Of a stretch of DNA of 64,000 nucleotides, positions 8,208 to 64,000 are shown in pieces. Location: assembly GCA_002633005.1 (NCBI GenBank), contig NMRA01000022.1, positions 1,714,502-1,778,501 of the forward strand, in the 5' to 3' direction. The notes below the pieces were generated by a model, which did not search any database, was not told the DNA's origin, and saw nothing but the letters and a program-made list of their open reading frames with translations. Position 1 is the first letter of the stretch. The number at the start of each line of letters is the position of its first letter. Both the position numbers and the translations under genes were made by a program. The DNA is from Phoronis australis. Its lineage: Eukaryota; Animalia; Phoronida.

Positions 8208-8415
8208 GTGAGTTGACGTAGGTTTAAACATTGTTACTCTTGAATGAATCAGCAAGTACGCCAGAGGTATTCTCACCCTTATAGCTAAGGTTATGTGAAA
8301 ACCCAGAAAAATGTTCCATATCAGCATGTCTTAGAGATTCAAACACAAACCTTTCAGAGACTGTACGTTGTCCATTGCTATCTAGAATCGTTTTAGATTA
8401 TTGTTTTAAAATGTT

Positions 8416-8509
8416 NNNNNNNNNNNNNNNNNNNNNNNNNNNNNNNNNNNNNNNNNNNNNNNNNNNNNNNNNNNNNNNNNNNNNNNNNNNNNNNNNNNNN
8501 NNNNNNNNN
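8416..8509. other. Assembly gap (N run)
   Basis: Run of N. Confidence 0.95.
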
Positions 8510-9655: not shown

Positions 9656-9973
9656 CTGGCCCTACGATACTAACTATTTCCTCCGAAAATTCCTTGATAC
9701 CCAATAACAGCATCCTGTGGAAGATTGCAGGCCTAAATGTCACCGTAGACTGTGAAACGGACAATGTGACCGGAAACGCCAGCATCGCTTGGTCCACAGC
9801 GCAGGGGCAGGGCAATGTAAGAGAAATCGGAACACAACCCAATAAAAGATTTTCAGTAGCTCTTACTTTCGTTACGACTCCACATCCACATCTTCGAAGG
9901 TACACGTGCTCTGCCAACAACACGCGCGCCCCGTCTCTTTCTACTTGGGCTTTCTTCACACTGAAGATACTGT
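9656..9973 (+). CDS. Ig-like domain exon 3
   Basis: atatttcAG..T|gtgagt, 318 nt; GPTILT..VDCETDNVTGNASIAW..YTCSANN. Confidence 0.85.
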
Positions 9974-11259: not shown

Positions 11260-11577
11260 CTGGCCCTACGATACTGACTATTACCTCTGAAAATTCCTTG
11301 ATACCCAATAACAGCATCATGTGGAAGATGCCAGGCCTTAATGTCACCGTAGACTGTGAAACAGACGACATGTTCGGAAACGCCAGCATCGGCTGGTCCA
11401 GAGCACAAGAGCAGGGCAATGTAAGAGAAATCGGAACAGAACCACATAAAAGATTTTTAGCATCTCTTACGTTCGTCACGACTCCACATCCACATCTTCG
11501 AAGGTACACGTGCTCTGCCAACAACACGCGCGCCCCGTCTCTTTCGACTTGGGCATTCTTCACACTGAAGATACTGT
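11260..11577 (+). CDS. Ig-like domain exon 4
   Basis: atatttcAG..T|gtgagt, 318 nt; close paralog of exon 3. Confidence 0.85.
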
Positions 11578-16400: not shown

Positions 16401-16790
16401 TTTTGTAAGAAATTCAGAAAACCACTTCAAATGTGTCTCATTCAGCTTCCCAGCTGCATCTCTTACAAACGTGTTATTCTCGGACTTTATGAGACACATG
16501 ATTTTCTATTTTAAATTTTGTTATTACCAGCCAAACAGTACATTTACAAGGAGTGATGTTACAAAAACATACCTAACATTTACAAGTTTGTACTTATGAG
16601 TACTATAATGTTGAAAATTTTGTATATGACAGTTTCTCTGGGAAATGGGAAAATTTATTGTTGAGTTAATTCCACGTAGCAGTTGAAACGATATACGAGA
16701 ATGGTCTCTCCTGAGGTGTGCATGCGTGAATGAATGGATGTACTTATTTGCTTGTTTGTTTTGTATATATGATAATAAATATCTGAAAAA
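13440..16790 (+). mobile_element. Degenerate L1-clade (Tx1-like) LINE ORF2: endonuclease, RT, C-terminal zinc region
   Basis: YWSDH, FWKFNNSLLK, RSRVRWIEEG, SRGCSQGNPSSPYIF, KYADDT and FQFRIRHR..SFCNKAPKTLSHLF, spread across frameshifts. Confidence 0.85.
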
Positions 16791-23783: not shown

Positions 23784-24600
23784 ATGCCACACTGTTGCTG
23801 CGTACCGGCTAGGACCAATATATATATTACTCCCAGGTACCGGGATGTACTAATTATCGTCTCACGCGCGCTTTTGGAGTACCTTCGCATAGCTTTCCGA
23901 TGGATGACAGACTTCGCCGTACTTGGCTCGTTCGTGTGAAGAGCGCAGCGTTACCCGTCCACGCAACGTACAAAGCAGTCGAGAATTACCGTGTGTGTGG
24001 CAAACACTTTCTGCCGTCCGATTACGAAAAGGATTTGTACGCTGAACTGATGAAGGTCCCTGCGAAACAACGCCTGAAGCAGGATGCCATTCCGTCCGTG
24101 TTGATTCCTGACGGTGCCCCGTCGCCATCCCCGAGATGTGTGTTTTCGCGAGCTGTGGCCAGTACAGTGACTGGAGCCAGTGGAGGCACTTCATCTACTG
24201 TCACCCGTGCCTCCGAACGTACCCCAGAGCGTGCCATTCCTGGAACCAGTAGTGATTCGCCCTGTGCTGTTTTCTCCAGCCCAGAGCCTCTAAGCAGCCC
24301 TGCAGCGATATTGAGTAGTGGGAGTGATTACAGGCCCAGTTCGACACCCAGTGAAGAGGACAGTTCGTCGTCCAGTGAACAGATCGGTGAGCCAAACTTT
24401 GATAAGTTTATTGTGGACTTGTCTAAAGTGTTGGAGCTATTTAGAAGGTGCCAGGTGTGTGGCGAGGGAGTCACACGACACGATGTAAGCAGTTTGGGTG
24501 CTCAGGTCACCATCCAGTGGGAGTGTGTCGCGGGACACTCTGGCAAGTGGGACAGTTGTTCCTCTGTCCGTGGTATGCCGGAGGTCCACTTAACCATGTC
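23784..24600 (+). pseudogene. THAP-domain transposase 5' part (truncated before the catalytic domain)
   Basis: MPHCCCVP.., MDDRLRRTWLVRV..YRVCGKHFLPSDY..RLKQDAIPSV (THAP/AVPTIF-like box), then FIVDLSKVLELFRRCQVCG..WECVAGHSGKW. Confidence 0.75.
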
Positions 24601-24897
24601 CAGTAGTGGCTTGGCCTCGTCGAACTCTGAACAGCACAAGCATTCCATTGAGGTAGGCATAACAACGCACACAGTGCATTTGCACCAAGATGTGTCACCA
24701 CGTCTGTCCTCAGTAGACGCCTCGTTTCTCTCAACAGCTGTCTGTGCCTGTGCGTACTCTGCCTCGTTATACTCGGGCTCAAACATGTACCCACCCACTG
24801 AATGTCCGTGAAAAAATTCCTCGTCACCACTGCTGTGAACAAGGTCTCCGTCACTCACACTACTGTTACTGTGATACGGGTCACCGAGTCCAGCCAT
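24595..24897 (-). pseudogene. P2X7 C-terminal/nanor-like Cys-rich ORF 5' part (Kolobok accessory gene)
   Basis: GYMFEPEY..RRGDTSWCKCTVCVVMPTSMECLCCSE. Confidence 0.7.
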
Positions 24898-25571
24898 TTT
24901 CAGTTTACAACACTCTAAACAATCCCTAAATCCAACGTAGTTGAGTTCTCTACTAACCTACGTTGCCGCAGAATACTCGCCGATGGAAAGTGGTGGCGAC
25001 AATTGTTGAAAAACAGCAAAAAACAAAAGTAGAGCAGAACAGATTCGCACGGTAAACTCAACGCAAAACCAAGTGGCGGGAAATGCTTGCCTCCTAAAAC
25101 GTCACTTCCGGAGTAGCTATTAGAACAAGTAAACTTTTGAATAATGGCGGCCTTAATTTATATTAATTATGCAAACTGACGATGTATCCACCCAAAAAAT
25201 TCGCTATTAAATTCGTTGACCATGGAAACATGGGTGAAAGCATCAAAATAACCTGCCTGCAATGATTGGTAAGGAAATTACAAGAAAAAATAGAATTTTG
25301 CATAATGACGGCCTTTTAGCACTACTAAATTCATTAACCATGAAAACATGGGTAAAAACGTCAAAATTATCTGGCTGCATTGCTTGGTAAGGAAAATAAA
25401 AGCAAAAATTGAATTTTGCATAATGGCGACGGCATATTTTAAAAAATGCTCAAAGGTTGCGAACGGTCACCTCCCTAAATCATGATCAACTATGCCTAGG
25501 CTACATGAAACAGCAAAGAAAAATCTTTATCCGACAAATCCAGGTTAAGTAAAAAACAGCATTTGGCTCCC

Positions 25572-27959: not shown

Positions 27960-28298
27960 CCGGCCCCAGACTTGTGACAGTACATCGTTCGTCAGATAGC
28001 GGCAGCGAACAGGTTTTGCACGGCCAAACGGTAGTAGTACAGGAAGGTATTCCGCAAGAATTCACTTGTTTAACAGGCGAAGTCTGGGGAGGAGCACGCG
28101 TGAGTTGGTCGACGACGGGAACGTGGAATATGAATACGATGAAGAGCCAAGAAGTTATTGGACATGGAATGAAATATAGGAATACGGTGACTTTTACTCC
28201 TCGAGTAGTAAAACTTGGCGTCACAGTTGAATGCAGAGCGGTGAATAACCGCGCAACAAGTCTGGCGGCGGTTTTATCATTCACAGTTCACGTTGTGA
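27960..28298 (+). CDS. Ig-like domain exon 5
   Basis: tttcattttAG..A|gtaagt, 339 nt; GPRLVTV..FTCLTGEVWGGARVSW..VECRAVN. Confidence 0.85.
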
Positions 28299-30057: not shown

Positions 30058-32560
30058 TGATTCAAGATTCAAGAAGCTTTATTTATCGTCGTTCAGAGAA
30101 CAGATTAACTTAAGCCAGGGGGGCTATTACGACGACAGAAAACATGAAGAAAATGGAACTTAAGCTAGAGGTGGAGAATAACACAGAGATATAATTGTAC
30201 AGAAATGTTGTCGTAATCGCTAAACTATATACTAGTTAGGGTCAAGTGAGCATAAACAATAATGGCTACACGTGTAAATGCTATAATCTAGATAAATCAT
30301 AAGAGAAACACTAATTATAGCATAACTTGGAGTGTGTACAAAGAGAACAGCTGCATTTAGGGCCTGTCCTGGTACGAATCAGTCCACGGAAAATGGTGAA
30401 AGACTCTGTTGTGCGCAACAGATTTGGTACACTGTTCCAGACCCGTGCAGCCACGAAGCGAAAAGATTGTTTTCCATATTTAACAGATTTGACTTGAGGA
30501 AAAGCTAGAACTGCGAAAGGATCTTTTCCTGCTTCTTTACAAGTGAAGAAAGTTTCTTGGTTGATTCACCATGAAGGATTTTAAGTACTTGTATTGCAAT
30601 AAGTCGAAGTCTGTTTAGGTGAAGGGGTGGTTTGTTAGCTAGATAGAGTAGTTGGTCGTGCGTCATAACGGCTAAATCGTCGTGAGAGACCGTCCGGAGT
30701 TGGTATATGGTGCAACTCCGGGCGGTCTGGGGTCAACAGAAAACCACAGTTCAATTGTGAGTCTACACCAATGTGATAAATGAGAGTAGTTCGACTGTGA
30801 CTGGGCAAAGCGTTTTCAAAATAATGTGGATAAATCACTGAAGTGTGAGACCCCTGAGGTCCCTGTCAACTCCTCACAACAATTCTACGTTATGTGCTAA
30901 TGTCGTCATTGCAAACAAATCGTAGGGCTCTGAGCTGAAGTTTTTCTAGTTTGAGTTTATTTTCTTTCGAGCACAAATGCCATGAGAGTGGGCAGTAGTT
31001 GAAATTTGAAAGGACAAAGAAGTGAAAGACGGCAAGTCTACCCTTTATCGTAAGATGGTGTCCAATTCTTCTTAGATAGTTTATTTGTTGTGAGGCTCTT
31101 TTGCAAATGTTCGAAATATGGGAGTCAAAAGTTAGGTTGGTATCAATGGCTATTTCTAGAAGTTTAACTTTCGGTTCACAAGGTATTTCGCAATTTCCAA
31201 TAGAGAGGGTTTTACAGAATGTGTTCATTTTTCCCCTATGCAGATTGCTTGGAATTTGTCAGGATTTGCTTGCATGCCATTTACAGCGAACCAACTGATG
31301 AGTGATTCACTATCTTGTCTTAGGGTTTCAGTAACGGAGAGTGGGTTGTTGTCGGACAAGGAGATGGTGTTGTCATCTGCGTAGTTGACCAGTGTAGATT
31401 TTTCCACAAAGAAGAAGATGTAATTGATGAAAGTATTAAAGAAATAGGGGTCCCAAGATGGATCCTTGAGGTACTCCCTTGTATACATGGCTCCATTCAC
31501 TTGAGTGTTGGCCTAGTTTCACTTGTTGTTTTCTGTTGGAGAGATAATTCCCAAGAAGGGCTAAGGCATTGTCATCAAATTTGTAAGCTTTAAGTTTGGA
31601 GATCAAAAGGGAGTGAGGGAGGCAGTCGAAAGCTTTAGAAAGATCCATGGGTACTGCTGCAGTGTATTTTTGTTCATCTTTGGCTTTACGCCAGTCTTCA
31701 AGTAGGCGAAGTAAGGCAGTGCTGCAACTAAAGCCAGCACGGAAGGCACCAAGGTAGTCATTAAAAAGATTATTGGATTCAAAGTGGTTGGACATTTGGT
31801 TAAAAATTTCATAAAGTTTTGAAATTATTGGTAATATACTGACGTGTCTATAGTTTGAGATGGAGAGGGTGTCATTTTTCTTGTGAATGGGGGTAACGCG
31901 AGCTTGTTTGAGACTGTCGGGTATTTGTGAGCAAGAGAAACTTGCGTTTATGAGATTGGCGATAGGTAGACAGAGGACGGATTTGCTGCACATTTAAGAA
32001 GTCTGGCTGGTATGTTATCGATACTAGTAGCTTTCCGAGAACTCAAGGAGTTAATGTAGTCCAATATACATTTTGCAGACACCTTTTTAAAATGAAAATC
32101 GTCAGCGTCTTTTGCTATGTTAGAAATAACGTGGAGGCTGGGGTGTTTCTCTTTAGTGGGGTCGGTCATATTTCCAAAATCTTTGGCTACGTTGATGAAA
32201 AAGTTATTGAAGACTGAGCATATTTTTGTTTGGTCTGAAAAAGTTTGATTTTCATGGGAGATTATGGTCGTGGTGTCGGTTGTATAGTCTTTTTTGAGAG
32301 GAAAGGTTTGATTGTGGGCCATAAATTTTTGTAGTTGGGGCCTTCGCTACATCTGTCTGAGAAATATGATCGTAGGCTGGCTCGTTTCATTTTCGTAGCT
32401 AAATTCCGCTGTTTACGGTAGGCTTCCCAGTTTCTTGTACTCCTGTCATGCGTATATTTGTTGAAGAGCATACGTTTTATGTAACTTGTCTTACGTAGTT
32501 TGCCGTTGAGGAAAGGTGGAGAAGATTTCGGATACTTGAGCCTAAGTGGGGCATATGAGT
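30058..32560 (-). mobile_element. L2/CR1-group LINE, 5'-truncated and frameshifted
   Basis: KQARVTPIHKK..NYRHVSILP, MDLSKAFDCLPH, GVPQGSILGP, NYADDNT; 3' tail aataaa..(ttgaatc)2 on the minus strand; ~250-bp interruption near 30640-30890. Confidence 0.9.
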
Positions 32561-34080
32561 GGGTTTCGTACAGAGTCTGGAAATACGTTTTTCTACTTAC
32601 TCGTCCGAATCTTCTATGAACGCCCATTTTGACAACTTCACTCTGAGTCCGATTGTTCGAATCTTTCCAACACACGTTTCAAGTTACGATAGTCTTCCTC
32701 GTCATCGCTTCCCGTAACTAAGACATCATCCAACATGACACTGACACGGAAAACTCCCACAAGAACAGTTTTCAAGCGTTGAGAAATCGCCGGTCTAGCT
32801 GGAATGCCGAAGGGCAATCTCTTGTAGCGAAACAGACTCTTGTGCGTGGCTATCGTACACAATTCCTGTGCTTTCATAGCGAGGAGTAGGTTACCTGTTG
32901 ATATGCCCTCGGCATGTCGATATCTGACCATTTCTGACCACCTGCTAAATCCTTACACAAGTCATTAGTTGTAGGTAACGAGTACTGGTCAGCGTAGATT
33001 CTCTTGTTGACAGTGATGCGGTAATCCCCGTACAAACGCACATTATCGGCTATCTTCGAAACGCAAACCAATGGCGTAGCCCTTTCACTATAACTAACGG
33101 GCCAAATGATTCCCTCCGCCTCCATGCGTTCTAACTCCTTCTCGACCGCGGGTCGCAACACAAACAGCACATGTGCGTTGCAAAATACGGGCTAAGAATC
33201 CGACTTGATATTAAGTTGAGCGCTCATACTCGTAACTATTTCTAACCCTTCTTTAAACACGTCCGGTAACGCTTGATGAGGTCGTAAATGGACTTCACGT
33301 TTGACATCAGCCTTGTTAATGATTGACATGTATAATCCCGTGCCCAATGCCATGTCGAAATCATGATAATTCAGTTTTCATTAGTTTGAAAGGGGATGCT
33401 TCGTGAATGTGGAGTACTGACCCGCATTAATTCACTTCATCCTCCGAGTCCGAATTTCCATTCCGATCACCCGACTCAGAATCCGAGACAATTCATTTTC
33501 TCGAATGTTTTTAACGTGCGTTTCTGGTTCCCGAAATAAAAGTAGGCCTACTGTGTCCCAGGTACATTTGTTTTTGCGTTCTACTTTTTTGGTTTTATGG
33601 CTCTTATCAGAATCCGTTTGTTGACACATAGATTTGAAATGACCTCCTCCAGCATTTATTGTCGTTAAATCTCCAAACATCAGCACTATGATTCCGGAAT
33701 CCAGAACGAAAACATTTTCCGGCTTTACTTCTCTGTGTGCTAACCTTTGCAACGGATTCTGCAGAATCCTTCGAGCTCAACTTCATGGACAGTATTTGTA
33801 ATTTTGCCACTTCTTTTGCACGCGCATAATTTAACAATTGTGTCAATATCAAACGGTGAATCAGCGCTTTTTGGCCAACCTGATTATTCGTACGAAACAA
33901 AAATATTTGTGAGCGTATTCCCTGATCTGGGTCAGCAAGCTCACACCTATTAGTAATGTCTCTTAACCTGATATAAAAATTATCTAAAATCTCCTCCTCA
34001 GTTTGCACCGTCTTCCTAAAAAGGAATTCATCGTTATCCGTATTCGACCGTGGTTTAACTTGAAAATTTTGTCAGCGCAT
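32560..34080 (-). mobile_element. Gypsy LTR-retrotransposon gag and RT remnant
   Basis: FYIRLRDITNRCEL (gag); VEKELERMEAEGIIWPV..ATPLVCV..VRLYGDYRITVN; FRYKRLPFGI..MLDDVLVTG (RT). Confidence 0.85.
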
Positions 34081-34921: not shown

Positions 34922-35266
34922 GTGGACCCTCTTCCTTGACGTTGGTTGACATGACTACAAGGACGCGCCTGCCCTGGAATCAACCAATAGTTATCAGCGA
35001 AAAGCGAAATCCCCGCCTCTACCTCAAGTGCATTACGGACCTCTCTTTCCCAAACGTCAATATGAACTGGACGAATGAGGATGTCAGTATGACACATAGT
35101 TATCTGGCCCGACTCCAAACTCGTCAACCAGGCAAGAACACGTTCAGTACTGTAATTCAATTGGAGCCCACACGTGCATTGCACATGTCTAGCCTGATAT
35201 GCAACGCCAGTAACTCGTTGGCTCCTTGGATTAAGAAGATTGATCGCGTGCTGCTAAATATTCGAT
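34922..35266 (+). CDS. Ig-like domain exon 6
   Basis: ctctcAG..T|gtaagt, 345 nt; GPSSLTL..LKCITDLSFPNVNMNW..LICNASN. Confidence 0.85.
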
Positions 35267-36707: not shown

Positions 36708-37022
36708 TTGGGCCTGACACCGTCACCGTAGCTGATCTTAAACAAGTCATCTCTGATGGACATAAAGTAAACGTAGTAGCAGGCGATCAGCAGTCGTTTA
36801 AATGCACAAGCAGCGAAACTTGGGAAATTGCTTCTGTGTCATGGTCCATTTCTGGGTTAGAAACCAAGTCTGAAGAAAATGGAGTAATAGCGAAAAAGTA
36901 CACAAACATCATATCATTCACACCAAACGCCGAACAGCATAACACTAACGTGAAGTGCAGTGCACATAATCAATATCACCCCACATTTACAGCATCCTTA
37001 AGCTTCACCATGATGGTTGTCC
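36708..37022 (+). CDS. Ig-like domain exon 7
   Basis: gtatttcAG..C|gtgagt, 315 nt; GPDTVTV..FKCTSSETWEIASVSW..VKCSAHN. Confidence 0.85.
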
Positions 37023-43924: not shown

Positions 43925-44227
43925 ATGGCCCCACTTCGCTTTCCCTCAGGCCTGGAAATATTGTCGATGTTATTCACGGCAAAAACGTGACTATTGACTG
44001 TTTCACGCCTCTACTTTATCCCGACGCCACCATTCAATGGAACAGGTCCCAGGGTCAAGGCGTTAAACGTGTTACAGCAGGCACCGGCGGCAGGAAGTCG
44101 CTGTTGATTAATTTAACGATAACAGGCACGCCCGCTCTAAACTTTGCCAGCTACAAATGTTCAGCCAAAAACACCCAACCAGGAGTATCTATTGCTGCAA
44201 AGACAAGTGTACACATTCGAGTCATTT
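43925..44227 (+). CDS. Ig-like domain exon 8
   Basis: tttttacAG..T|gtaagt, 303 nt; GPTSLSL..IDCFTPLLYPDATIQW..YKCSAKN. Confidence 0.85.
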
Positions 44228-48350: not shown

Positions 48351-51169
48351 CGGCAATATACACCCGCATGATTCTGGGCGCATAAAAATGATTTGTCTTT
48401 ATCCAGTGGTAATATTTTAAATCAGTGACGTCATTTCCCAATTGGCTGAATGGATTAGTCTGTCAGCACGTAAAAGGTTTGATTACTACACTCTGTCATT
48501 TTTCATATTTTGGTTTTTAAGACTAAGCATATTTTTGTGACCTGTTAGATATGCGAAATAACAATTATCAAATTATTAACCCTTTTCTTGTAGTGTTATC
48601 AAACACCATCAAGATCTCGTCAAAGGCTTTCTATTGATATGACTTACGCAATTCGGTTGAAAAATGGCGGAGTTACGAACAGTTTTAGTGACAGTAAGTA
48701 TAGTAAACACACTTTGCCCATTAGGATAGTGCTTCGAAAATGTAAATGATCCTACGTACATGATCTTAGAACTCAGAAGGTGGTTGTTCATGCGAATGTA
48801 TCTTCAAGGATATTAAATTGTTGCAACATGCCTCTAGAGACGACTTCACATGTACGTTACGCCTTTCAACTAGGCAACGACTGGCATCCTGAAGTGAGAA
48901 TGCTTGGGGACATTAATTAGCCTGGAAGAAATATGAAAATATTGGGATACTTTCAGTGATAAAAGTTTTAAACACATTAACAAAAAATCCTCCCCGTAAT
49001 CCATAGCAAGAAACAACATAGGAACAAAGAAATGCAAACAACAACTCACTGAACTCAGTATGCATAAGATCGCGGTTGACATTCAAATCCTGGAATTCTA
49101 TGATATCGAGCCTTGATGAGCGTTCATAAAAGTTGTCAAAAAGGTTACTATGACGTAGACCAGCCCCGTTTCAGACGGATTTGACCCACCTTGCGTCTCC
49201 TAGTAGCGTTCACTGTAGATGTACTATGCGCGCACCCAGCCTAAAATATAGGGAGGTTCGAATTCTTCGATATGCGGACCTTTATCTGAAACAAATCAAC
49301 GATCGTATCTAGCCTGACTGGGCTGGGCTGATAAAAATGAAAGTTAAGTTATAACGTATTTGAGCTTAAACTAATAGCATTTCTGATTTCCTCGTCAAAT
49401 GTTGATCATGTTCCGTTTTTGAATCACCAAAATCGCCCAACTACAAGAGAATTTAAGACAATCTATTCTGTCCAAACGGATTACCAACGTACTGAGCAAA
49501 AGCCTGAGCTGGGCAGTTAACAAAAGAGCCAGATGTTATCGCACGTTCAGCACCCCTCACGTCTGGAAAAGTTACTGAACGACAGAACGCTGTAATGTGT
49601 AACAGCTAAAAGTGAATTATCGAAGCTCTTTAAACATTTTTGACATAAAGGATTAATTTTGGGTTGGTGAAATGATTTATTATATGGAGTTTATCGGGTG
49701 AACGTTGTACTGAGAAGAGCTGACCAAAAAGTTCGTTCAAAAACTGGTCGATTGAAGAGCAAAAATCGGTTTATTTGTCGCCTGGTCACCATGGTCACAT
49801 TCATTGAATCTATAATTTACCCCAGCGTTTAGGGTGAGCAACCACAACACTGAGCGTAGATTAACTGAACACTTTCATCTTAATTCTTATATGTTATAAA
49901 TATTTATTACAAAAGGGGTTTTAAACAAGGAGTTGATTCAACATCGGACACAAAGTTTTCTTTTCCACACGAATTCGCCACTCATCAGGACATACACTTT
50001 TCTGGTTCATGAATTCTCGTGACCTGTGGTTAATGTCAGCAGCAAAATGAGAATATAGGTCAAGGTGTTTGATCAAAATTCTCTGGGAGACAGTCTTATC
50101 TGAGTCCCTTAGCGATAAATTGACACGTGATTGGTGAGAAGCGCCATCTGTTTGTGGTAAAGGTATTGGATGAGCGGGTACCTTTTGCAGCCGCGCCAGC
50201 ACGCATAATTTTCCTCAGGAACTGTTTTTACACCGGCGTTTCTGATTGACTAGTCGAATTCTCAACAGGCAGCGTTTTACGCAAACAAACTGGCATGTGA
50301 CTGAAGTGTAAATGTGGTCTGTTTGTGTAGACAAATTGGTGCTTAAAATTTATATTCAGGAAATGTGAAGCCTAGAAATTGTGATTGCGCCTTTTCGGAA
50401 TGCATCTGTCTACTGTCGATGACTTTTGTTTACAATAGTGTCCTGTATTCATACAGTATGAATAACACACCGGTTAAATCGGCCAGGTGTGTTATGTGCT
50501 TCAAGCACGCGGCTATTAAACATCACTGCGGAAACGAAATAATTTCTGCGACGCCACTTGCTTGACAAGACTAAAAATCGCTCACAATCCGCCATTTTTT
50601 CACAGTGTTGTAAAGCTAACCAATGACTGCTGAGGTTACCGGTACATCAACCAATGCTAAAGCGCGTGCCACTGCGTGATACCTGGGTGCTGGCTAGGCA
50701 CGTGGGGGACCAACGAGAGTTTGTATGCTCAACTGTTTCAAAACTCGACTTAAATTTCTGTCTAACTTACGGCCGAAGACCAAAAACGGACTAAACGCTC
50801 ATGAAACTTCCTTTTGTCAAATATTGAACCTTGTACATTTCGTCTTATGTTTCATGAAAGTTACTGTTAACAAGATTTTCTGAATTTGAGGGAAAATCTC
50901 TTGAGGTGAAATCAAATACGGAACATAAACTTTTTTATTTTGTTTTAGTGAAAAGGAATTAGCTTTCTTGACGACCGTTCATTTGAATGAATAATGGTGC
51001 CACTGATAGTGTACCGGTAGTTATTTGTGTTATTGTTCTGGTGGAAACAAGCTAACATGTATTCAAAATTATAAAAACAACCGGGACATTCAAGGCTCGA
51101 CGTGATTTTAGGTGCAATCCTTCTCCGCTGGCGAGCGGTCCCACGGCCGAGCTGTCAACGTCAAAGCTA

Positions 51170-51430
51170 AGCGCCACTACATGCGCGCACCCAGCCTAAA
51201 AATGGGGGGAGAGCTCCAATTGTTGAGAATGTGGACCTTTTACAAAGAATTCAAGGGGTATATTCAGAGCAATGAATTGTGCATTCGCCGAATTTTTGTA
51301 GTTCCTGCCTTTTTGCTGCACTTTTGTCTCGTTTTCTATTTTTTTCGCAATTTTTGTTTCTCTAAGACGGACTTTTTGCTTACTTCGTTCTAGACCCTCG
51401 ACCCCCCGGGTGCGCGCATGTACTACTGTA
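51170..51430. mobile_element. Short MITE-like element
   Basis: tacatgcgcgcaccc and gggtgcgcgcatgta inverted ends; partial copy at ~49220-49290. Confidence 0.45.
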
Positions 51431-51622
51431 TCGCCTGTGTACGTGGAAACATAATCTATGGTGGAAATAAGTGAGCACATGTCAAGAAATTGGCAAAAAT
51501 AAAAACCTGTCGAAATGAATGAAAATCTCACAATTTGGAGCGTATATACTATATTGCATGTGACTACAGACCTGAAAAGCCGCAGTCTAGTGCAAAATAA
51601 TGGGCAATTTTGGCGTTTTTAG

Positions 51623-51952
51623 ACGGACCAACGCTCGTGTTTGTCACCCACAACATTAGCAATCAATACATTCGAAATGTGACGAACAAGACTGTGGAAG
51701 TATTGAGCGGCAAAACACAGCTATTGACTTGCACAACAGACATGTCTTGGAAAACAGTTGACATCCTGTGGACGTACGCAAGCGCACGCGTAGTGGAAAC
51801 CAAACAAATCTGGCAACTCGGCAGAACGTTCACGAAAAGCCTGGTGCTCAAACCTCAGTCTACATGGCATGGAGACGTCGTCACCTGCAGTGCTTTCAAC
51901 GTAGCTCACAATGCATTTATAGCCAACTCCTCCTACACTCTTAAGGTTGTAG
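51623..51952 (+). CDS. Ig-like domain exon 9
   Basis: gtttttAG..G|gtgagt, 330 nt; GPTLVFV..LTCTTDMSWKTVDILW..VTCSAFN. Confidence 0.85.
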
Positions 51953-52349
51953 GTGAGTGCAGCATCTGCGAAACCACCTTAATTGTTCACGTCAAATCAT
52001 CTCTGGTTTACTCTAGTCGGACGGTATTCACCGTGTGAGTTGTGATGTCTACATGTAAATGTCAGCCCGATCCGTCGACGATGCGAGCAGTAAATTTTTA
52101 AAGCACTGAAATTACCTTTGATTTGATTGAGGAAAATTTGAGACCATTTATAACAGTCTGTCGTATGAATCAATACTATGAAGTCGCTTTAGAGGAATTT
52201 TGAACCTGCGTTCATGGGTTTTTGGTAACGAACCCTCGGCTTTGCATCCCTGTTATTGTAACGAAGAGGTAGAAATCAAGTAACGATTGAGATTAAAGAG
52301 TTGGATCACTAGCGATATCGATTAACTTCATCTTGACCATTTTTTGCAG

Positions 52350-52670
52350 ATGGGCCGAGTCGGGTGCATATAACTATATCGGACGGGCAGGATGTGGTGA
52401 AGGAAGTGAAGATGTACTCCGGTCAACCAGATTTGACACTCTCCTGTACAACGGACTATGTCTACCCTTGGGCGGATTTAGTATGGCAGCCTGCCGGTGA
52501 AGTCTCCCAAAGTGTTAGACTTGGAAATACGTTCCAACGAAACACGATTATTAACGTTGATAATTTTACCGACGTCATAGTGAAGACTTGCGTGGCTACA
52601 CGCACAAACCATCCACTTAACTTTCACTTGACGCCTTCGGCCAATGCTTCCGTAACCATCAGGAATACTC
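52350..52670 (+). CDS. Ig-like domain exon 10
   Basis: ttttttgcAG..C|gtgagt, 321 nt; GPSRVHI..LSCTTDYVYPWADLVW..KTCVATR. Confidence 0.85.
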
Positions 52671-53600
52671 GTGAGTGAGGCTCCAACTATGATCGTTCCT
52701 TTTGTTGGTCAGAGCAGCCACTTGTGACATAGGGGGGATAATATATGTCGACTGAGACAACGTATGCAGTCACTTTGTGATGCTACGTATTGTGACTACC
52801 TAAAAGCGTCCATCTTCAACAAAAATGTTTTGCTGTATTCATGATGTAGGCCTACGCAATACTGCGTGTAACCATAGGTTAAGGTAACGGCAAATAAAAA
52901 CTTCGACGAAGAACTCTCCTGGTAGATATGGTGGATGTTTCAAGGATCTCAATGAAGATCCAAGGTCAAAGTTGGAGGATTACTGAGAAAAACAGGCATT
53001 TACAATTCCAAATGTTAAAGTTTACAAATCAACGTGACCGCAAACGAGGCTCGCGTCAGACATGGTTAGTATTATCTCCAACCATGCAATCCTGAACTTT
53101 CCGCGTTTAACTTCCTACTACCTCGTTTTGGTTTTTCACAATTTCCTGAATCCCCGCTAGACTCTGGATCCGCCTATGCCCCAAAAAGCCTAGTGTACAG
53201 ACTACCTTTCAACACACCGGGGGGAAAATGCATCGCCAGTGTTTATTGCACATAGTGTTGCATCCGACATGTATTGTCGCCCGGCTGACAATGTGTTAAA
53301 GGCATGCAGGCCTATCGTCGCGTTGGTCCTGTATTGTCGCTCCAACAGCGTTCTCTTTAACAGCATCCTTTTCCCCCTTTCTGCTGTTGTTTTTTCATCA
53401 GCTCGAATTCAGTTCTTAATAAGTAAATTCAACCGTTCCGCTAATTTTAATGAGTGAAATCGCCTGTTCGGCGGCCATTGATCGCTCTAACGTACGAGCG
53501 GCTGAAAAGAATGCCTGTCATACATGTACATGTATGTTTGCATGTACGTTTATAGTGAACGTCATTGGACTCCGTTCTCACCACGATTGGGGTATTTCAG

Positions 53601-53921
53601 ACGGACCGCGCGTTGTGCAAATATACATAAGAAATCGGCCAATCGGCTACGAGGACAAGCATATTGATGAGGGTATGACCTTGGACGCCAGATGTGTTGC
53701 CGAAGATTACTCACCAGGTGTTACAATTGATTGGATTATGCTGACAACTCCTGACGACGTGTATGAGCATTCGGAAGTCGGACAATTTAGGACGATAAAA
53801 TCTGAAAGTTCCCTTAGGTCCTTCGTAGATTTCCAGTTGCACGGATCCAAGGTTACATGCAAGGCGACGAATACGGGAAACTTGGCTCAAGTCAATGCAT
53901 CATTTAGGTTATTGGTTCATT
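53601..53921 (+). CDS. Ig-like domain exon 11
   Basis: gtatttcAG..T|gtaagt, 321 nt; GPRVVQI..ARCVAEDYSPGVTIDW..VTCKATN. Confidence 0.85.
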
Positions 53922-54849
53922 GTAAGTAAATCTGGGAATTCAAAACGCCCCTTCCTTAGATTTTTTTGGTGTACCAACTTGTCGCAGTCATGCATTTTCA
54001 AATAATACTTTCGGGACATAAAATGCTTCTTGACTGACTGAGATTGTTTAACTTGTACTATCTGGTGCACAAAATTTGAGTCATAATCACTCCTAATTTT
54101 CTCTTGAGTAATACCCATACCCGTATTCTACACAAGACAACTGCGTAAGGTTTGATAAGCGGGGGAAAAATGCGAGCTCGACCCCCTCCTTCAGTCGGCT
54201 TTAGTCTCACCGCGACTGCCACCACCCATTTTAGCCCGGAGGTCCGACACCATAATTTCCCCCCGTCATCTTCGGTCGACAACCTAGTACTTGTCCATGC
54301 ACCTCCATCGTCACTAATTGTACCACTTGACAACACCTTTACCTCCGCTCGTAGGAAAGTACACATTGTTGGGCAATGAAGCCGGCATCAGTCCATCGTC
54401 CATGGTCGTCGCCTATTTCGCATCTTGCTCCATCGCCATCATAGGCACGCAGAGTTTACTGCTAGGGGAGCAAATAGTGTACAGGCAGCCTCCAAAAACT
54501 TACCTTTCCACGCTTCAACAAAATTACGTAAAAAAGTTGTCCGCTTATTTTTGTACTTTTTCACTTCATTACAGAACCAAAAACATGGGCTGCCCGAATC
54601 ATTTTTTGAGCCATGTACAAAAGTAAGGTAAGATACCCCTACTGCGGGCTGTAAAATCTGGAGAAACGTGAGGAGGAGGATCATCACCTCAGAATCCGGC
54701 CCTTAGGAAAGTAAACATTATTGAAGGGGAGGGGGAGACCCAGCTGAGACTTTTGCGCCCCTTCCCCATTGGCACCATTGCCCCTTCCCTCCATTCTCCA
54801 GATGTCGCCCTATTCCACCCGCCATACGTCGCGCGGAAGCAAACATCAG

Positions 54850-56480
54850 TATTGATAGGGACCACAACACCCCACAAACGACACAACCGTACACCCTACA
54901 AACTTGACTGTTTACAAAACTGTATTCTCACAATCATCACAAACACCCCCACAAACTCTCCACAAGACACCTCCACAAATTCACAACTCTTCACAAGCCA
55001 CCAGAGAAGCCACAACACAACAGAGATAGGTGTCGCTTGTAACTAGTTACATACCAGGCGGGTGTTCAGTTGGCCCAAGGACCTATGCTAGGACCTAGCT
55101 AAAATCTAGTCAAAGTCACGTGTTCATTTAAAGTACACGGCAATATCTCACGTAATCCCGCGAAGTCTTGCTTTTTAACGAGGTCCTAGCGTTGCTGAAC
55201 GGGAGGCAGCATTAGTAAACACTAGCCGGTCAAGTTCAATACAGGAACACAGGGGCATTACTGGAATAATTTTTCCCAAACAAAGGCGCCGACTCTCTAG
55301 GTGAAGGCTGCGTGCAGAATAAATTGATTGGCACCAGGCCCGACTGTGCCGCCGATAACAAGCCTACAATTGGAAAGATAAGTTACCCTGAAGTACTGGG
55401 CGTGTATTCGGTGGTCGGTGCCAAAATCTGTTGAAACTGTGGAAACACAGGACATGTGTTGGCAGTGAGCAGTATGAGAGAACCACTGTACCTACAAGCA
55501 TTTCTCAGTTAAAAACTGGACTCGGCAAAGTAAATGCTGATATCCAGTGCACAGAGCACCAAAAAGGTGACAAACCATAATGACACCGAGCAACGCAGTT
55601 CCCATGTGACATTCATCCTACTTATAGAGTGAAGTCGGGGAAAACCATGAGAACTATTCTCGCCAGTCTATGTACATGTACTAGTCACCATCGGTATGAG
55701 CGACATCATAAATGTGCTATTCGACATACAACCTCCGAGGAACCCTAACCGTTCATGTACCATCAGTAAATACGACCACATACAGACTTCATAGTTTCAA
55801 ACATGTCTCCTCTTAGTGACGGAACCCTCCAGACGGTGCCATTAAAAGTTTATATGAGCTTTATGAGCTTATCATCCTTCAAGTGTCTTAACAGAATATT
55901 AAAACCGGATTCTCTGCTGCAAGTATGTGTATACGTTCCTTAGTTAGTCTTTGTAAACTTCATGTAATGAATGTCCCTGCTCTCAATCCTTTTTTCGTGT
56001 ATAGTTATCACATAATACTACTTTGTGATGCTGACCTAATTGTATCACAACTTCTTCTAAATACTGTAAATATTTTAATGCAACTCTTGCTTTAGATCGA
56101 CTACCTACGGGCTAGTGTTCACCGTTCGTGTTGCTTTGAGTATAAATAAACAGACTATGTATGTATGATGTACCAACATGTATGTAAAACCTAACTTGCT
56201 AATGCCTAAGTCACGCCCACATACGTATCTCTCACATGATTCTCGTAATCATACCTACTGAGATAGCGACACCTGTTTCTGGTGTGTTGTGGAATTTGTA
56301 GTGTTATGTATTGTGTAGGGGTGGTGTTGTCAGAATATGGGGAAAGTGTGTGAATTGTGGGATGTTGTTTCGATTGTGGGGGATGTTGTAGATGGTTTTA
56401 GAGTGTTGTAGTCATTGTTTGTGTGCGGAGGGGTGGGGGGGGGGTTGTGGTGTGTGTGGGGTGTTGTTGGACCTATACGC
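54850..56480. mobile_element. Unclassified element with CA-rich/GT-rich imperfect inverted ends
   Basis: atagggaccacaacaccccacaaac..aggtgtcgct (54854-55037) is mirrored by agcgacacct..ggggtgttgttggacctat (56265-56477). Confidence 0.45.
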
Positions 56481-56782
56481 TTCCATACATCATAACCCGA
56501 GTAACCATGTTACAACTAAGTTTGTAGTCATGGAAAGCGAGAATGAGAGCTAAAGGCTGAGATTTCATGTCTGTATTTCTCAAGTGAACTATGGCTGTAA
56601 GCTACATGTAGCAGCTGAACGTGTGAAAATATGAATTGGATAGACCAGGGTAGCCGCTGCTTAGCTATGATTTACTTGAGCCAGGAAGCTCAGCTCTTTC
56701 CTATCTATCGGTACTGGCCATAAGGTAACAACAACCATTCGGTAACAGCAGTGCTACGGTGACTGTTCCGATTCATTTCTAG

Positions 56783-57076
56783 TTGGCCCTAAAAGAGCAG
56801 ATGCCTTAGTCGACGACAAGCAAGTAAGTCTCGTCCGCGTAAACGAAAGCGACTCAATCACATTGTCGTGTAGAACCGATGACGTATTCCCCTCGGCCGT
56901 AGTGGAGTGGTCGCACGGGACTGATAAGGCCTCGTATCGCCAGGGTATGCGATATTATTCACGCACGACGCTATCCGAGGTATCCAAGGGAATGAACCGC
57001 CGCAATGTTACCTGCACTGCAAAGCGTCCTGATTCAGTCAGTTCAGTTAAGGCAGAGGTTACACTATACGTTACAC
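56783..57076 (+). CDS. Ig-like domain exon 12
   Basis: ttcatttctAG..C|gtacgt, 294 nt; GPKRADA..LSCRTDDVFPSAVVEW..VTCTAKR. Confidence 0.85.
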
Positions 57077-58905
57077 GTACGTAATGCGGTGTGCGCTAAT
57101 CTGAAAAAGTTTCGAATGTTCGCTGTATTTCCGTATCGTGTGCATAGTTTAGACATAGCTGCTCAAATATTTTCACGCTCATCAAAATTCTAGAAATGCC
57201 CAACTTTTCTGGATTTTCTTCTTTTGAAAATTGTGTGCACTTTGCTAAAAATGTGAATTGCTCTTCTTTCGTTGTGGTACGAATCTCATGACTCCAATGC
57301 GTCGACACATCTGAAGTAACGTGTTAGCCCGCAGATGAGTCACTTACCCAGAAGCAGATAGAAAAGCTCTTGCTATTTCACATTGCATCATTAGGTGAAT
57401 GAGGACTTGATCTTTGTAGGACTTCTCAAAAAGTTTTAGCATCACTATAATATAATCTTTTCTTACGCCACCATTTTCACATTGATAAAAGGTGTTCAAA
57501 ATTTGAGGATATTGCCGAAAATTGAAAATAAGTCTCCAAACAAGATGTACATGTTTAATAAGAGAAGTTAATTGCGTGTCTCATCATAAATCTTGCGAAT
57601 CAAATAGCAAGTTCAATTAAGAAAAAAACATAACGAAATTAAATTATAAAAATTAAAGTTGTGTGCCACCTAGTGGAAGAATTAAGTAGTGGCCTTTTAC
57701 ATTGTACAACAGACACTGCATCTCTTTGTTTTTTTAATGACATAGTTGGGAATATTATTTAGGAATTCATTCAGGATATTAAATGTGGAGTACTGGTGTG
57801 CCACAAATTCACATAATTAATATACAAGGACACAAGAGCTAACTTTGTGTAAAAAAAACAAGGAAACAAGATTTTCAGATTTATTGAATAAAAAACATTT
57901 CATCTCAAGAAATCAATTCAACGTTTGCAGATCATCCTCCAGGGCTCTGGATCCCTAGAAATTGGGGCCGAATATCGACCCCATTCTCTTCACAAAAATA
58001 TTCAAAACTCACACGAAATTACCCTCATCAGGTCGAAAAATTCGCCTGCGAACAATCAAACATTCCCCTCATGCTTTGAGACAACCTCAAAAATATCGTG
58101 ATGACTTTAGTCACGAGGCCGCCCGACACCAGAAACGTCATAAACTGGTTTCCTTATAAAACAAGTGTCACTTACAGGAGTGTTAGAACCATTTTTGTGA
58201 TATTACACTCTCGCGTATTGACACGCAAAACCAAAAACCTCCATGTGTCCTTGGCTGAAAGTGGCACCCAAACAAGTTCTACAAGAGGAGAAATATGAAA
58301 AACCATGCAGTAGAGCACAGAAACATACAGAAAAGTGTCTTTTCAATGGTGCACTTTTCTTAGAAACAGTCCCAAGTCAGACCGCACTTGAAATCATCTC
58401 GGAAGTATTTGTGTTCTTCTGACGGTGACTAGAGGTTGGTACTTCATAATGACTTAATGTTATATACAGTGTACATACTGATTAGTGAATTCATAAAAGA
58501 GTTTAGAATCCCCTCTGAGTAAAAAACGCCGCGAAAACTTACCTTTTAGGCGGTACAGGCAGCGTTCCATCGGGTGAGTGAGGGCACTGTTGCTCGTGCA
58601 ACTTGTGTCTTAAAGAATTTTAGCAAGAGCACAGGGTAGTGCCATCCACTGTATGCTGATCCTACAATGCTCCACGTTCCATCTAAATCCCTTTAGGGAC
58701 GGCGCATACATGAACTGACTACTATAGGAGAATAAAGCCTAATTAGATTTTTGTTCATTAACGTTAACTAAAAGGATACTAGGCCCTGTTTTGATGACTT
58801 CAATCGATGATCGTTCTGTCACCTGCTGATGCATGGTCGGCGCACTATAGGAGGCTGGGGAGCTACACCCCCACTTTTTTCACTGCTGCGCCGCCCATGT
58901 GATGC

Positions 58906-59788
58906 AACATTGGCGCCAATCGTGGAAATCAAAGACATGAATCAACTAAAACTCATCCTCCCCATGTCACAGATTGGACCTAATGGTCCTTGGTGGGTGG
59001 CATTTTCCCACAGTTTCCGCGAAATTCGCTAAAAGCATAGGACACGCTTTCCGGTTTAGCAAACTTTGAAAGGTTGCTGAGGATCGGTTACAGAACATTA
59101 TTTTGTGTCGGAGAACTGGATGTGAAAGCCGCTTTTAGAATCTGTTAATAAGCCAAAACCATGGGCTGCGCAGCACTGAAAAATGTGGAGGCTAAATCCC
59201 CCACCCTCTGTGGTGCACCAGCGATAGACCATGGGCGGTGCAGTACCGAAAAAAATGGTGCTATATCCCCCAGTCAACTATGGTGCGCTGCCCAGGAAAA
59301 CCAGGTTTGGTATCCTTTCAAGCAGAAGTGCGCGTTGAATAAGTCANAACATTGGCGCCAATCGTGGAAACCAAAGACATGAATCAACTAAAACTCATCC
59401 TCCCCATGTCACAGATTGGACCTAATGGTCCTTGGTGGGTGGCATTTTCCCACAGTTTCCGCGAAATTCGCTAAAAGCATAGGACACGCTTTCCGGTTTG
59501 GCAAACTTTGAAAGGTTGCTGAGGATCGGTTACAGAACATTATTTTGTGTCGGAGAACTGGATGTGAAAGCCGCTTTTAGAATCTGTTAATAAGCCAAAA
59601 CCATGGGCTGCGCAGCACTGAAAAATGTGGAGGCTAAATCCCCCACCCTCTGTGGTGCACCAGCGATAGACCATGGGCGGTGCAGTACCGAAAAAAATGG
59701 TGCTATATCCCCCAGTCAACTATGGTGCGCTGCCCAGGAAAACCAGGTTTGGTATCCTTTCAAGCAGAAGTGCGCGTTGAATAAGTCA
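58906..59788. repeat. ~440-bp direct duplication around a single N (59347); likely assembly/haplotype artefact
   Basis: Two copies differing at very few bases, joined at an N. Confidence 0.7.
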
Positions 59789-59989
59789 AAGCAGAATGAA
59801 GTTCATTAACGAACTAATTCAGCGCGTTGATTAATCACATGTCAACAAGCAGAAAGGCACTCGTTTAAGAACCCATTGGCTCTTTATATGGTAGACCTCA
59901 CAGTCAGTTGAATATATGCACAGTAATATGCGACACGATAAACAAGCTCCGCCTATTACGAAATAAAGCCCACACTCATAACGTTTCGA

Positions 59990-60463
59990 CAATATTTTCT
60001 TTCAGATTAGAACATGCTGTTATAAGTGCCTTTTGCACTTAGAGGGACACCTTAGGAGGCCGTTGATATCTTTAATTCCTTCCAACCCGAATAAATACTT
60101 CCGTAATCAAACTTCGTTCAGTTCCTCAAATCGGCAAATGCACATTTTTACACTGTGCTCCCTCCTATTTTACCGCGCCCGGCATGAGCGGGCGCAGTGT
60201 TAAAATGGCCAGTTGCCAATTTGGGCAACTGAACGAAGGTCAGCCAAAATGTTTGAGTATTCATTAGGGTTGGAAGGAATCAAAGACATGGACGGCCTCC
60301 TAAGGTGTCTTCCTGTGCGCAAATGCTACTTATGAAAACGCGACTTTGATATTTTAATCAGATTGAGCCATAATTCGTCGAAAAGCTTCCAGCGTATGAA
60401 GCTCATGCTATAAGATCTTCATCGTCTCTACTGGGGCCAGCGAGAGACAACGGTCACTATCTA
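59990..60463. mobile_element. Diverged palindromic relative of the 41746-42677 element
   Basis: acaccttaggaggccg..ttccttccaacc mirrored by ggttggaaggaa..cggcctcctaaggtgt; shares ataattcg.cgaaaagcttcc with the 42.6-kb TIR. Confidence 0.55.
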
Positions 60464-60559
60464 CTATACGACTGTCAGAACTATCCATTATTCGCTTGCT
60501 TAATTATTCCTTTTACAAGTAAATGGATTCCTTCTTTGATGCAGTATTGTCCGTTGCAG

Positions 60560-60889
60560 ATGGCCCCAAGTCAGTGATAGTAACTGATGACAAGCAACGG
60601 AAATTCAGCGAAAACGCTGACATGGATGTCATCACGGGAGTAACGTACACTCTGAATTGCCTCACTGATGACGTGTGGCCTGGAGTGCACATTGAATGGC
60701 ACGGGGCGTCTGGTCTGGGCGAGCAGATGGATGTGAGATCGCAACAGTCGAAGACCGGAATACGAGTATCAACGCAACTGAGCATGGAGCCAAACATTTC
60801 AAGTGACGAGCAGGTGTTGTGGTGCATCGCCGTAAACTCTGACAATGCTGGCATATCAGCAAAAGCAAAACTTACGCTGAAAATAATAC
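60560..60889 (+). CDS. Ig-like domain exon 13 (membrane-proximal)
   Basis: ccgttgcAG..C|gtgagt, 330 nt; GPKSVIV..LNCLTDDVWPGVHIEW..LWCIAVN. Confidence 0.85.
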
Positions 60890-62299
60890 GTGAGTGAAAT
60901 AATATTTCAGTAAGAAAACAATGAGAAATTGGTCAAGCGTATTTTAAAAAGCCAAGGCCAAATGTGTTGTCCTTGCGGACTTTACTGGCGAATGAATGCA
61001 TGCGGCAAAGTACAACGATGTTAAAACTATCCAACGCATGACGATACTATGTGCTAAAAGGGACACCGAGAAATGTATACGGATGTTTGATTAGGCCACG
61101 GGTTCACAGATATCGAGGTACATAGCCACAAATCGACCAGCTCGTTTTAGGTCGTAGGTGTGGGCTCGATAATGACTTCCTTTCTAGCACACAGCATCAT
61201 CTGATGTTAGATTGTTTTGTATTGTTGTATTCTGTTCCTTGCTACGTCCTCAACGAAACTTTCATTGCCAGTTCTAGAACTGAATGTCAGATATATGCTA
61301 ACCTATTTTTAAACTGGTAGAAAAGTTTTCATAAAGAGAATGAAAATTTCGATTTTCAGGAAACGCATCGTCAGTCAACGAGTTAGATATTAAACATGCT
61401 GGACAATAAATAACTGGATGTCTTTGTTCTACTGAGAACGTAAACCACTTGGCTGGAATAATTTCTTGTACCATAACGATACCTGTAACAAAAAAGAAAG
61501 TGAAACTTAAAGGTCGTTGCAATAAGGCTGCAATAACATCAGCAACTACTTACGTAGGTAACTAAGCACCAGAAATTACTTACTGGTATGTAAACAAGGC
61601 AAAAAAACGCTTTCCTTGAAATGGTAGAGTTCTTTCCATGAAAATGTTTGTTTCAGTGCCTACAACGTGAAAATACGTACACCTTGCGAATGCTTTTATC
61701 TTACTCAATAACTCGAGTTAAAAGGATAATAAACCCTGTTTTGACGATTTCAACCATTACCGTCATTCTGTCACCTGATGCATCGTTGACGTCAATCTTG
61801 AAAGCTAGAGGCAAGAAACAACTAAAAACACACACCCCGTATCTCACGTGATATTGTTAGATATCGTGTTCCTTGTTGGGTGGTCTTTTCCCACAGTTGC
61901 CCTGCATTTCGCTAAAACCCCATTTAGCAGACTTTGAAATTAGTTTTCAAATTTTTGGCCAAATATTTGAGGGTCACAGTATTGTTTTGTTTCTGGGAAC
62001 TGGATGAGAAAGTAGCTTTTAGTATCTGTTTTAAAATTTAAAATGGGCCAAAAGAGCGGATTTGGTATTTTAAGCAACAGGTACCAAAATGTCCAAAAGA
62101 AGTTATTAATGATGCAAAATGTTGTTATTATGAAATTATCTTTTATTCAATCGTGACATCACTGGCAGATTTGATTTTAAAGGAAATTATTACCTTTTCA
62201 AGGTATAATGGACAATTAGAAAAAATGAGCAACTAAAAATACTGCAGACCAGAATCAACTATGCTTTTGACCTATATTCCTTTTCTCCACATGGCCATC

Positions 62300-62460
62300 G
62301 CTACCTGCCTACGCCCCTGCCTCCCTCCCTCACTCCCTCCGTCCTTCCTTCCCTCCGATTTTGTCTGTCGCACTCTCCGTGCCTCCCTCCCTCCTTCAAG
62401 CTGCCTGCCTCTCCCACGCCTCATCCACTCTTCTATCATACTTTCATCCCTCTCTACTAT
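62300..62460. repeat. (CCCT/CCTT)-rich low-complexity tract
   Basis: ctccctccctcactccctccgtccttccttccctcc. Confidence 0.7.
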
Positions 62461-62610
62461 AGGAAAAAAATTCTGATAATCTCTCGTCCTAACAGACTAA
62501 CCTCAAGAGTGTAATGTATGGACGAACTCCAGATAAGCTCTTCTCTTCAAGCTTCTCTGGTGGCTCTGGGAATATCTCAGTTTTATAAAGCATATTTCCA
62601 TATGTTGCAG

Positions 62611-64000
62611 AGTCAGAAGATGTGCTCATGCACGCTGATCTTCAAAACTGGGCCGTCCCTTTGTCCGTGTTCCCGGCCGTTGCGCTGCTTTTGGGGGTGC
62701 TCGTAGCTGTGTACAAGCGCATGAAAGTGAAGAACATACTGCGGCGGCATGGTCAACTCGAACATGAGTTACAGCAATGTTTGAAAGAAGGAGATGATGA
62801 GACTGCAGACGTTGCAATGAATAAGTACAAGGCGTTATTGAGTAAAAACAAGACACTGGTTAGACCCAATGAAGAACTGGTCAAAAAGGTTGAGGACAAA
62901 CTGGAGACGTCAAACACTGAAGTAAACGACCTCTTGACCAAGGTTAAGAAGGACATCGGTGTAGCAGTGGCTAGCGGTGACGCCACACAGATGGAAGCAG
63001 TGCTGAGAGGTCTGAAGCAGTTCTGCACCGACCAAGGAAGTCACTTGAGTATGCAGAAAGTAAAAAAGGAAATGTACAAGCTTCAAGACGAGATCGAGAA
63101 AGTGAAACCGACGGCAATCAAATTCAACGAAGTGGATTTCCCCCAGCCTGAAAAGAAAACGGTGTTCACGCCAGACGTTGGAGCTGTAAAGAGACCGTCA
63201 TCAACATCGGGTCGGGAGCCGGGTCAACTTGACTTAAAAACACAGTGTGATGCTCTAGTGAAGGGATTGTACGCAGCTATCAAGGGCGGTGACCAGACTG
63301 CAATAAAGGAATCATTAGCTAACTACCTGGAGTTTGTTCAGGAAAATAAAGGAGCGGTGAGGAGGGATGAATATTTGATAGCGCGTGCAAAGGCGTGTTC
63401 GAGCCAACAGTTACAGGATTTACACCAAGAACTCGTGTGCCGCCTGAGGGAATCCATGGCCGCAGCGCAACCTGCGGGGTCAGATATTGCCTCTGGACTC
63501 CAGTCTTACAAGGATTTCGTTCGCAAAAACGAGCGCTATATCCCAGCGAACACAGGTCTTATTGCTGAGGCTGAAAGCATGCTTACTCGTTGCAGGAGTG
63601 ACGCAAAGAGGCAAGCGATGTCTTCCAGATCGAAAACAGAAGGAACGTCTGGCGGTTCTTTGTTAGAGCCAGAGCGCGAATTAAGGAAACATGTACTAAA
63701 CATAGACACAGTGACGTTTTCATCTATGAAAGATTACAAGAAACCACCCCAAATTGTGCACAGGGTCGTCAAAGCTACTTTACTTATACTGGGAGACTCC
63801 GAACAGGATATCGAGAACTGGGAAACGTGCCAAGATCGGCTTGCCGTAGTTCCTTCGCCCAACAATCGCGGTGGTTTGTTCAACCGCATAACACAGTTCA
63901 AGGTACAGTCAGTTAGTCCCGAAATTGCTGCCAGAGCAAGATGGTACTTAAAAGGTCTTTCAAAAGAGTTCGTTGAAATGGTCAACTCCGGAGCAACAAT
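62611..64000 (+). CDS. Large phase-1 exon: transmembrane helix, cytoplasmic helical repeats and dynein-MTBD-like domain (open past the window end)
   Basis: tatgttgcAG acceptor; ~463 stop-free codons; TM WAVPLSVFPAVALLLGVLVAVY (62649-62714) followed by KRMKVK; C-terminal ..SMKDYKKPPQIVHRVVKATLLILG..NWETCQ.. Absent from the ORF track because there is no stop in the window. Confidence 0.85.

Follow-up and report, generated by a model that had tools for sequence, protein, structure and literature searches.

The frame that closes the 64 000 bases analysed here (the window) ends in a domain homologous to the microtubule-binding domain (MTBD) of dynein, and it terminates a spliced multi-Ig membrane protein, the transmembrane helix and Ig ectodomain of which were overlooked in the first-pass annotation of this DNA. 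An adhesion-type receptor is the most likely identity of the protein, with a glycosylated Ig chain outside the cell, one helix crossing the membrane, and a spacer of helices that leads to the MTBD-fold module at the end. The reading that we favour, with close to even confidence, is that this motor-less homologue at the end of the predicted tail is a static docking module and does not make a dynein-type grip. The protein is neither a dynein nor a hillarin; it has the MTBD fold and lacks most of the tubulin-contact residues.

Table 1. Coordinates of the exons, predicted segments and key codon in the window
Feature	Position	Strand	Observations
Ig-like exons, first four of eight	5981–6310, 7890–8207, 9656–9973, 11260–11577	+	Phase 1-1
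Ig-like exons, other four of eight	27960–28298, 34922–35266, 36708–37022, 43925–44227	+	Phase 1-1
Ig exon	51623–51952	+	RNA-joined to next exon
Ig-like exon	52350–52670	+	RNA splicing at both ends; without Pfam match
Ig exon	53601–53921	+	RNA splicing at both ends
Ig exon	56783–57076	+	RNA splicing at both ends
Membrane-proximal Ig exon	60560–60889	+	C2-set_2, E 5e-4; RNA joints
Last long coding exon seen	62611–64000	+	Acceptor TTGCAG directly before 62611; linker, TM-like helix, helical tail, MTBD-fold domain
Predicted single transmembrane helix	62649–62714	+	19-residue hydropathy 2.53, sole such window in frame; then basic KRMKVK
Predicted cytoplasmic rod	62715–63638	+	Four helix-turn-helix units in two pairs, disordered Pro-rich linker between
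Gly/Ser linker	63639–63659	+	Breaks helix entering domain; pLDDT < 50 at tail residues 309–314
MTBD-fold domain	63660–64000	+	Short CC1-like helix and H1–H6; window end truncates before CC2-like helix
Ser codon TCT	63723–63725	+	Yeast E3122 position; no RNA variant listed

Gene structure and predicted topology

The splice sites, together with the taxa in which the relatives occur, suggest an intron-rich animal gene region. Thirteen Ig exons of 294–345 bases each, all on the forward strand, all of phase 1-1 and each with the Ig C-W-C core, precede the last exon, and 11 of the 13 match an Ig-family Pfam model at E ≤ 0.05 (two above the curated cut-offs). Expression was judged from raw RNA reads aligned to positions 50001–64000. 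In two runs, reads joined 51952 to 52350 (14 and 5 reads; listed as 51950 to 52349, with one allelic letter between), 52670 to 53601 (13 and 13), 53921 to 56783 (11 and 7) and 57076 to 60560 (4 and 5), and the joint from the Ig chain into the membrane and tail exon, 60889 to 62611, was spanned by 16 and 19 reads. All joint-spanning reads came from one strand, and RNA coverage of the last exon was likewise on one strand only. Five Ig exons are spliced onto the membrane and tail exon, and the gene is expressed; the eight Ig-like exons further upstream (5981 to 44227) appear from their sequence to belong to the same gene. The third run of one study (X7) contained no exon reads and the other two reached a last-exon depth of 14–26, a contrast which indicates that expression is probably tissue- or stage-specific. 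Three of the Ig exons in 7890–11577 have identical C-terminal 26 residues, the product of recent tandem exon duplication.

Joined together, the 14 exons read through without a stop for 1856 residues. Of the N-glycosylation sequons in this frame, 35 lie on the N-terminal side of the membrane helix and one lies beyond it, an asymmetry expected for a type I protein, which would place the domain inside the cell. Type I topology is thus predicted, and the protein has the tandem C-W-C Ig domains and the single predicted transmembrane helix, spliced in frame, of an Ig-superfamily type I protein. No convincing signal-peptide exon was found in the window (one weak candidate lies at 3355–3421), and the 5' end of the gene may precede it. 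In layout, though not by demonstrated orthology, the protein resembles type I adhesion receptors with several C2-type Ig domains, such as those of the nephrin/Kirre, Siglec and CEACAM-like kinds: each phase 1-1 exon encodes one Ig domain, the predicted glycosylation is heavy and there is a single membrane helix. To our knowledge, known multi-Ig receptors reach the cytoskeleton via adaptors and short motifs and not by a folded MTBD-type domain.

Between KRMKVK and the domain the tail runs for about 310 residues, mostly helical, and its AlphaFold model (pLDDT 80.9, pTM 0.35) shows disorder at tail residues 133–169. The rod units matched generic helical bundles only; against the family's helical-repeat profile the rod scored no better than shuffles, the likeness being one seen by eye and in the predicted helices. 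The Gly/Ser linker belongs to an insertion of about 24–30 residues that is missing from the aligned relatives (alignment A2).

Homology of the terminal domain to the dynein MTBD

The forward-strand frame open at 62589–63998 (470 residues) contains the peptide singled out in the first-pass annotation, from 63681 to the window end. The domain is not a chance product, because a full HMMER scan of 1.84 billion proteins yielded 111 relatives at E ≤ 1e-3 (best 1.7e-15). Against a domain profile built without it the query scored 101.7 bits, compared with −1.1 bits for the reversed query and at most 5.7 for shuffles (862 of 1000 scored), a test that is partly circular in that the family behind the profile had been gathered with the query. 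RNA reads of two runs cover positions 63642–64000 fully with no listed difference from the window, and RNA and contigs extend beyond 64000, in 13 and 23 reads and, for one contig, over 359 bases.

Comparison of profile A1 with 6kjo, 6kjn and 6kio (E 7e-12) bears out the earlier proposal of homology to the dynein MTBD, and by this sequence evidence the domain is a motor-less homologue. As modelled, it is predicted to have the six-helix MTBD fold (PF12777 core), for which the closest known fold is the dynein heavy-chain MTBD (core PF12777 MT; PDB 5AYH, 3ERR, 6RZB, 6KIO, 8I3J). Foldseek against solved structures gave E-values of 0.03 or worse. Single-sequence searches with the domain matched neither dynein nor any other domain model in Pfam, and no dynein in the PDB; the cytochrome b562 rows that they returned were rejected as noise. 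For the 470-residue frame, in which the domain is truncated before its last helix, PF12777 gave no row at E ≤ 10, and the domain has no dedicated Pfam model. Word-index protein searches gave no match, blanks that carry no weight because HMMER shows that relatives of those lengths exist, and metagenome scans found neither a copy of the locus nor a close relative.

That no AAA ring precedes the domain, as had also been claimed, was confirmed: the 470-residue frame has no Pfam AAA match of weight (best AAA_13, E 1.7, in a coiled region), and no Walker A motif was found in the 13 Ig exons or the last exon. Just two Walker-A-like strings occur in the six frames, near 1152 and 3186, outside all 14 exons. 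Nor was a long antiparallel CC1/CC2 stalk found within the window: the match to stalk structures spans tail residues 315–428 only, and the lead-in helix is about 12 residues long and preceded by the disordered linker, the CC2 side lying beyond the window. Unlike dynein, the phoronid domain is without an AAA ring and without a long coiled-coil stalk on the CC1 side, has an insertion between H3 and H4, sits after a transmembrane helix and keeps one of six yeast contact residues.

Tubulin-contact residues

The yeast MTBD forms six salt bridges via K3117, E3122, R3124, R3152, R3159 and R3201, and neutralising any basic contact residue lowers its affinity more than twofold (PMC7042235). The H1 glutamate and H6 arginine are described as the pair locking dynein onto its site (PMC4298687), and PMC6629372 agrees on the MTBD–tubulin interface. 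These positions were mapped onto the domain through the A1 structure match, the mapping in H3 being unsure, and were compared in 89 family rows (the rows, out of 119, in which the domain is covered; they represent 86 proteins). The yeast E3122 position (Dictyostelium E3390 by the papers' description) holds glutamate in 86 of the 89 and is the most conserved letter of the MTBD pattern that the first-pass annotation had reported. The peptide is present and the homology stands, but the first letter of the pattern, the E of ELKS, is serine in the phoronid copy; its codon is not a sequence error, because RNA of two other samples matches the window there. Lysine or arginine stands at the R3124 position in 72 of the 89 rows, and at K3117, R3152, R3159 and R3201 in just 25, 44, 1 and 22 % of them. 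At the six positions, from K3117 to R3201 as listed above, the phoronid copy reads T, S, K, E, N and M, so that one contact of six is kept, and only 6 of the 89 rows are as low; when shifts are allowed two are kept, with 2 of the 89 as low. As a counterpoint, some basic residues remain and the interface charge is as low in 16 of the 89 rows; the hydrophobic core and W are also retained. Tight microtubule binding as the default reading is not borne out by a sequence in which five of the six yeast contacts appear to be gone, at the low end of the family.

The motor-less family and other proteins with the fold

Thirty-five of the relatives have at least 600 residues: 26 contain Ig-like_KY, one has CLCA and VWA, another VWA and a third five PF12777-like repeats; the other six gave no Pfam match, and none of the 35 has an AAA domain. 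Among the 54 shorter relatives, nine match PF12777 at E ≤ 1e-3, four above its cut-off. Source names include hillarin-like and kyphoscoliosis peptidase (molluscs, annelids, a brachiopod, a flatworm), which together with the Ig-like_KY matches substantiates a link to hillarin/KY-type proteins that had been proposed earlier. P0015 and P0087 were set aside as probably spurious repeat matches. Tandem copies of the domain occur in P0035 (five, behind a Hemingway/CFAP97-like start), P0030 (two, a snail) and P0003 (three, KY-like). The domain is usually the C terminus, the protein ending no more than 30 residues past the last W in 49 of the 89 rows and no more than 60 past it in 68. F/L-x-x-W, which the first-pass annotation had predicted just past the window, stands at the start of CC2 in 77 rows; from the family alignment its place in the phoronid domain would be 64002–64004 (F) and 64011–64013 (W), beyond the window.

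The closest sequence relatives are the C-terminal domains of hillarin-like/kyphoscoliosis-peptidase-like proteins (PF01841 and PF23265), which share with the phoronid protein the position of the module, at the C terminus after helical units. In those proteins the H1 glutamate is kept, and transglutaminase-like and KY-type Ig-like domains are present; the phoronid protein instead combines serine at that position with a membrane helix and Ig exons of the conventional kind, and neither PF01841 nor PF23265 matched in its last exon or 13 Ig exons. It does carry the C-terminal MTBD-like module common to hillarin/KY/LTD-1-like proteins. Hillarin has been reported at the leech axon hillock (PMC3081291). 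Pfam scans of 89 of the 111 relatives, the other 22 being mostly short fragments, revealed no orthologue in which Ig domains are combined with such a tail. In a quick tree 47 of 86 inner branches are open, and the query is placed nowhere firmly, with an end branch of 1.05 and no supported sister; an independent fusion is not proven by this tree.

The same terminal domain is found in four amphioxus proteins, XP_078700756.1 (CLCA and VWA), XP_066263927.1 (mucin-like), XP_066272931.1 (CD20-like) and CAH1240778.1 (unnamed), whose names are automatic only. Like the phoronid protein they have one or more hydrophobic helices, behind which a cytoplasmic tail carries the motor-less MTBD fold at its end, but their ectodomains differ and the glutamate is kept; the hydropathy scan did not flag the mucin-like protein, which is judged by eye to be membrane-bound. 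In the quick tree the CLCA and mucin-like proteins are separated from the phoronid copy. From their sequences, the CLCA-like, mucin-like and CD20-like amphioxus membrane proteins (P0038, P0099, P0065 and P0069) would be better candidates for direct microtubule anchors than the phoronid gene. Non-dynein chains with the fold, at middling Z, are 7jrj_I (radial spoke head), 9fqr_Xl (sperm axoneme), 9ya2_L (Toxoplasma intraconoidal microtubule) and 9e5c_2e (trypanosome doublet), which are ciliary or apical-complex proteins, unlike the phoronid receptor. We infer the identities RSP2, EFCAB5 and ICMAP2 for such chains, and the available text of their structure papers does not name the MTBD likeness. 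The literature searched, outside which lay subscription papers and supplements, gave no description of the motor-less family; in the text available, its matches for MTBD-like and dynein concerned TTLL11 and not this family.

Proposed function

The MTBD is usually regarded as a part of dynein, in which the motor sets its grip through the stalk. In the static docking that we favour, the Ig chain would bind other cells or matrix, and the rod, a predicted spacer of about 300 residues, would keep the domain away from the membrane. The source of the terminal module would be the motor-less family of hillarin/KY type, with no new derivation from dynein itself, and the module, having no stalk, would lack an affinity switch. 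With most contacts gone, docking of another protein is likelier than microtubule tethering; the partner may be a cortical or cytoskeletal protein, and any microtubule binding would be weak.

Alternatively, the tail may be a direct membrane-to-microtubule tether, binding weakly as in the diffusive state of dynein and gaining avidity from receptor clustering at a contact. We regard this as quite possible, though less probable than docking, given the single contact kept, the reversal of charge at R3152, the neutral residues at E3122, K3117 and R3201, the cost of each neutralisation in yeast (PMC7042235) and the flexible linker that breaks the lead-in helix. It is unlikely, to our mind, that the domain came along with the last exon as a passenger and is now decaying under relaxed selection, the function residing in the Ig chain and rod: loss of a residue that 97 % of rows retain, the long end branch without a supported sister and the insertion in the lead-in helix would fit such decay, but the frame is open and expressed up to the window end, hydrophobic core and W are kept, identity to relatives falls inside the family's own range, and the six RNA variants listed for this exon all lie outside the domain, a number too small to test. 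That the Ig exons and the MTBD-like exon are separate genes, or the domain a chance helical likeness, is very improbable, since the former is contradicted for the last five Ig exons, even though the blank single-sequence searches and the Foldseek values could be read that way.

A wider speculation, which we hold only tentatively, is that in invertebrates unrelated surface proteins (Ig chains in the phoronid; CLCA, mucin and CD20-like proteins in amphioxus) have repeatedly acquired the motor-less MTBD by fusion to their tails, giving unrecognised receptors that hold microtubules without adaptor or motor. If so, the phoronid Ig receptor would be a weak-binding, avidity-tuned member of this class, and hillarin/KY-like proteins, too, would bind microtubules, through their unnamed C-terminal domain. 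The wide motor-less family offers natural test cases for the MTBD fold without the stalk switch, the H1 glutamate, kept in the family and lost in the phoronid copy, provides a ready comparison pair, and a testable function is suggested for the C terminus of hillarin-like proteins. For the phoronid gene the claim is smaller, that of an unusual receptor tail with a doubtful microtubule grip.

Other features of the window

A THAP-domain frame (23813–24811, forward strand, E 3e-11) lies inside a 16-kb intron and is overlapped by an opposite-strand frame (24502–24957) with a P2RX7_C match (E 5e-5); the two are probably a DNA-transposon remnant. Near-exact direct repeats of about 400–440 bases at about 58909–59790 and 1306–2116, with one N separating the two copies in each case (59347 and 1708), are likely both scaffolding artefacts. 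Broken frames at 14847–16599 and 18000–18701 (forward strand) and at 30890–32678 and 32638–34071 (reverse strand) are, from their motifs, presumably pieces of LINE reverse transcriptase, LTR-retrotransposon and tyrosine recombinase.
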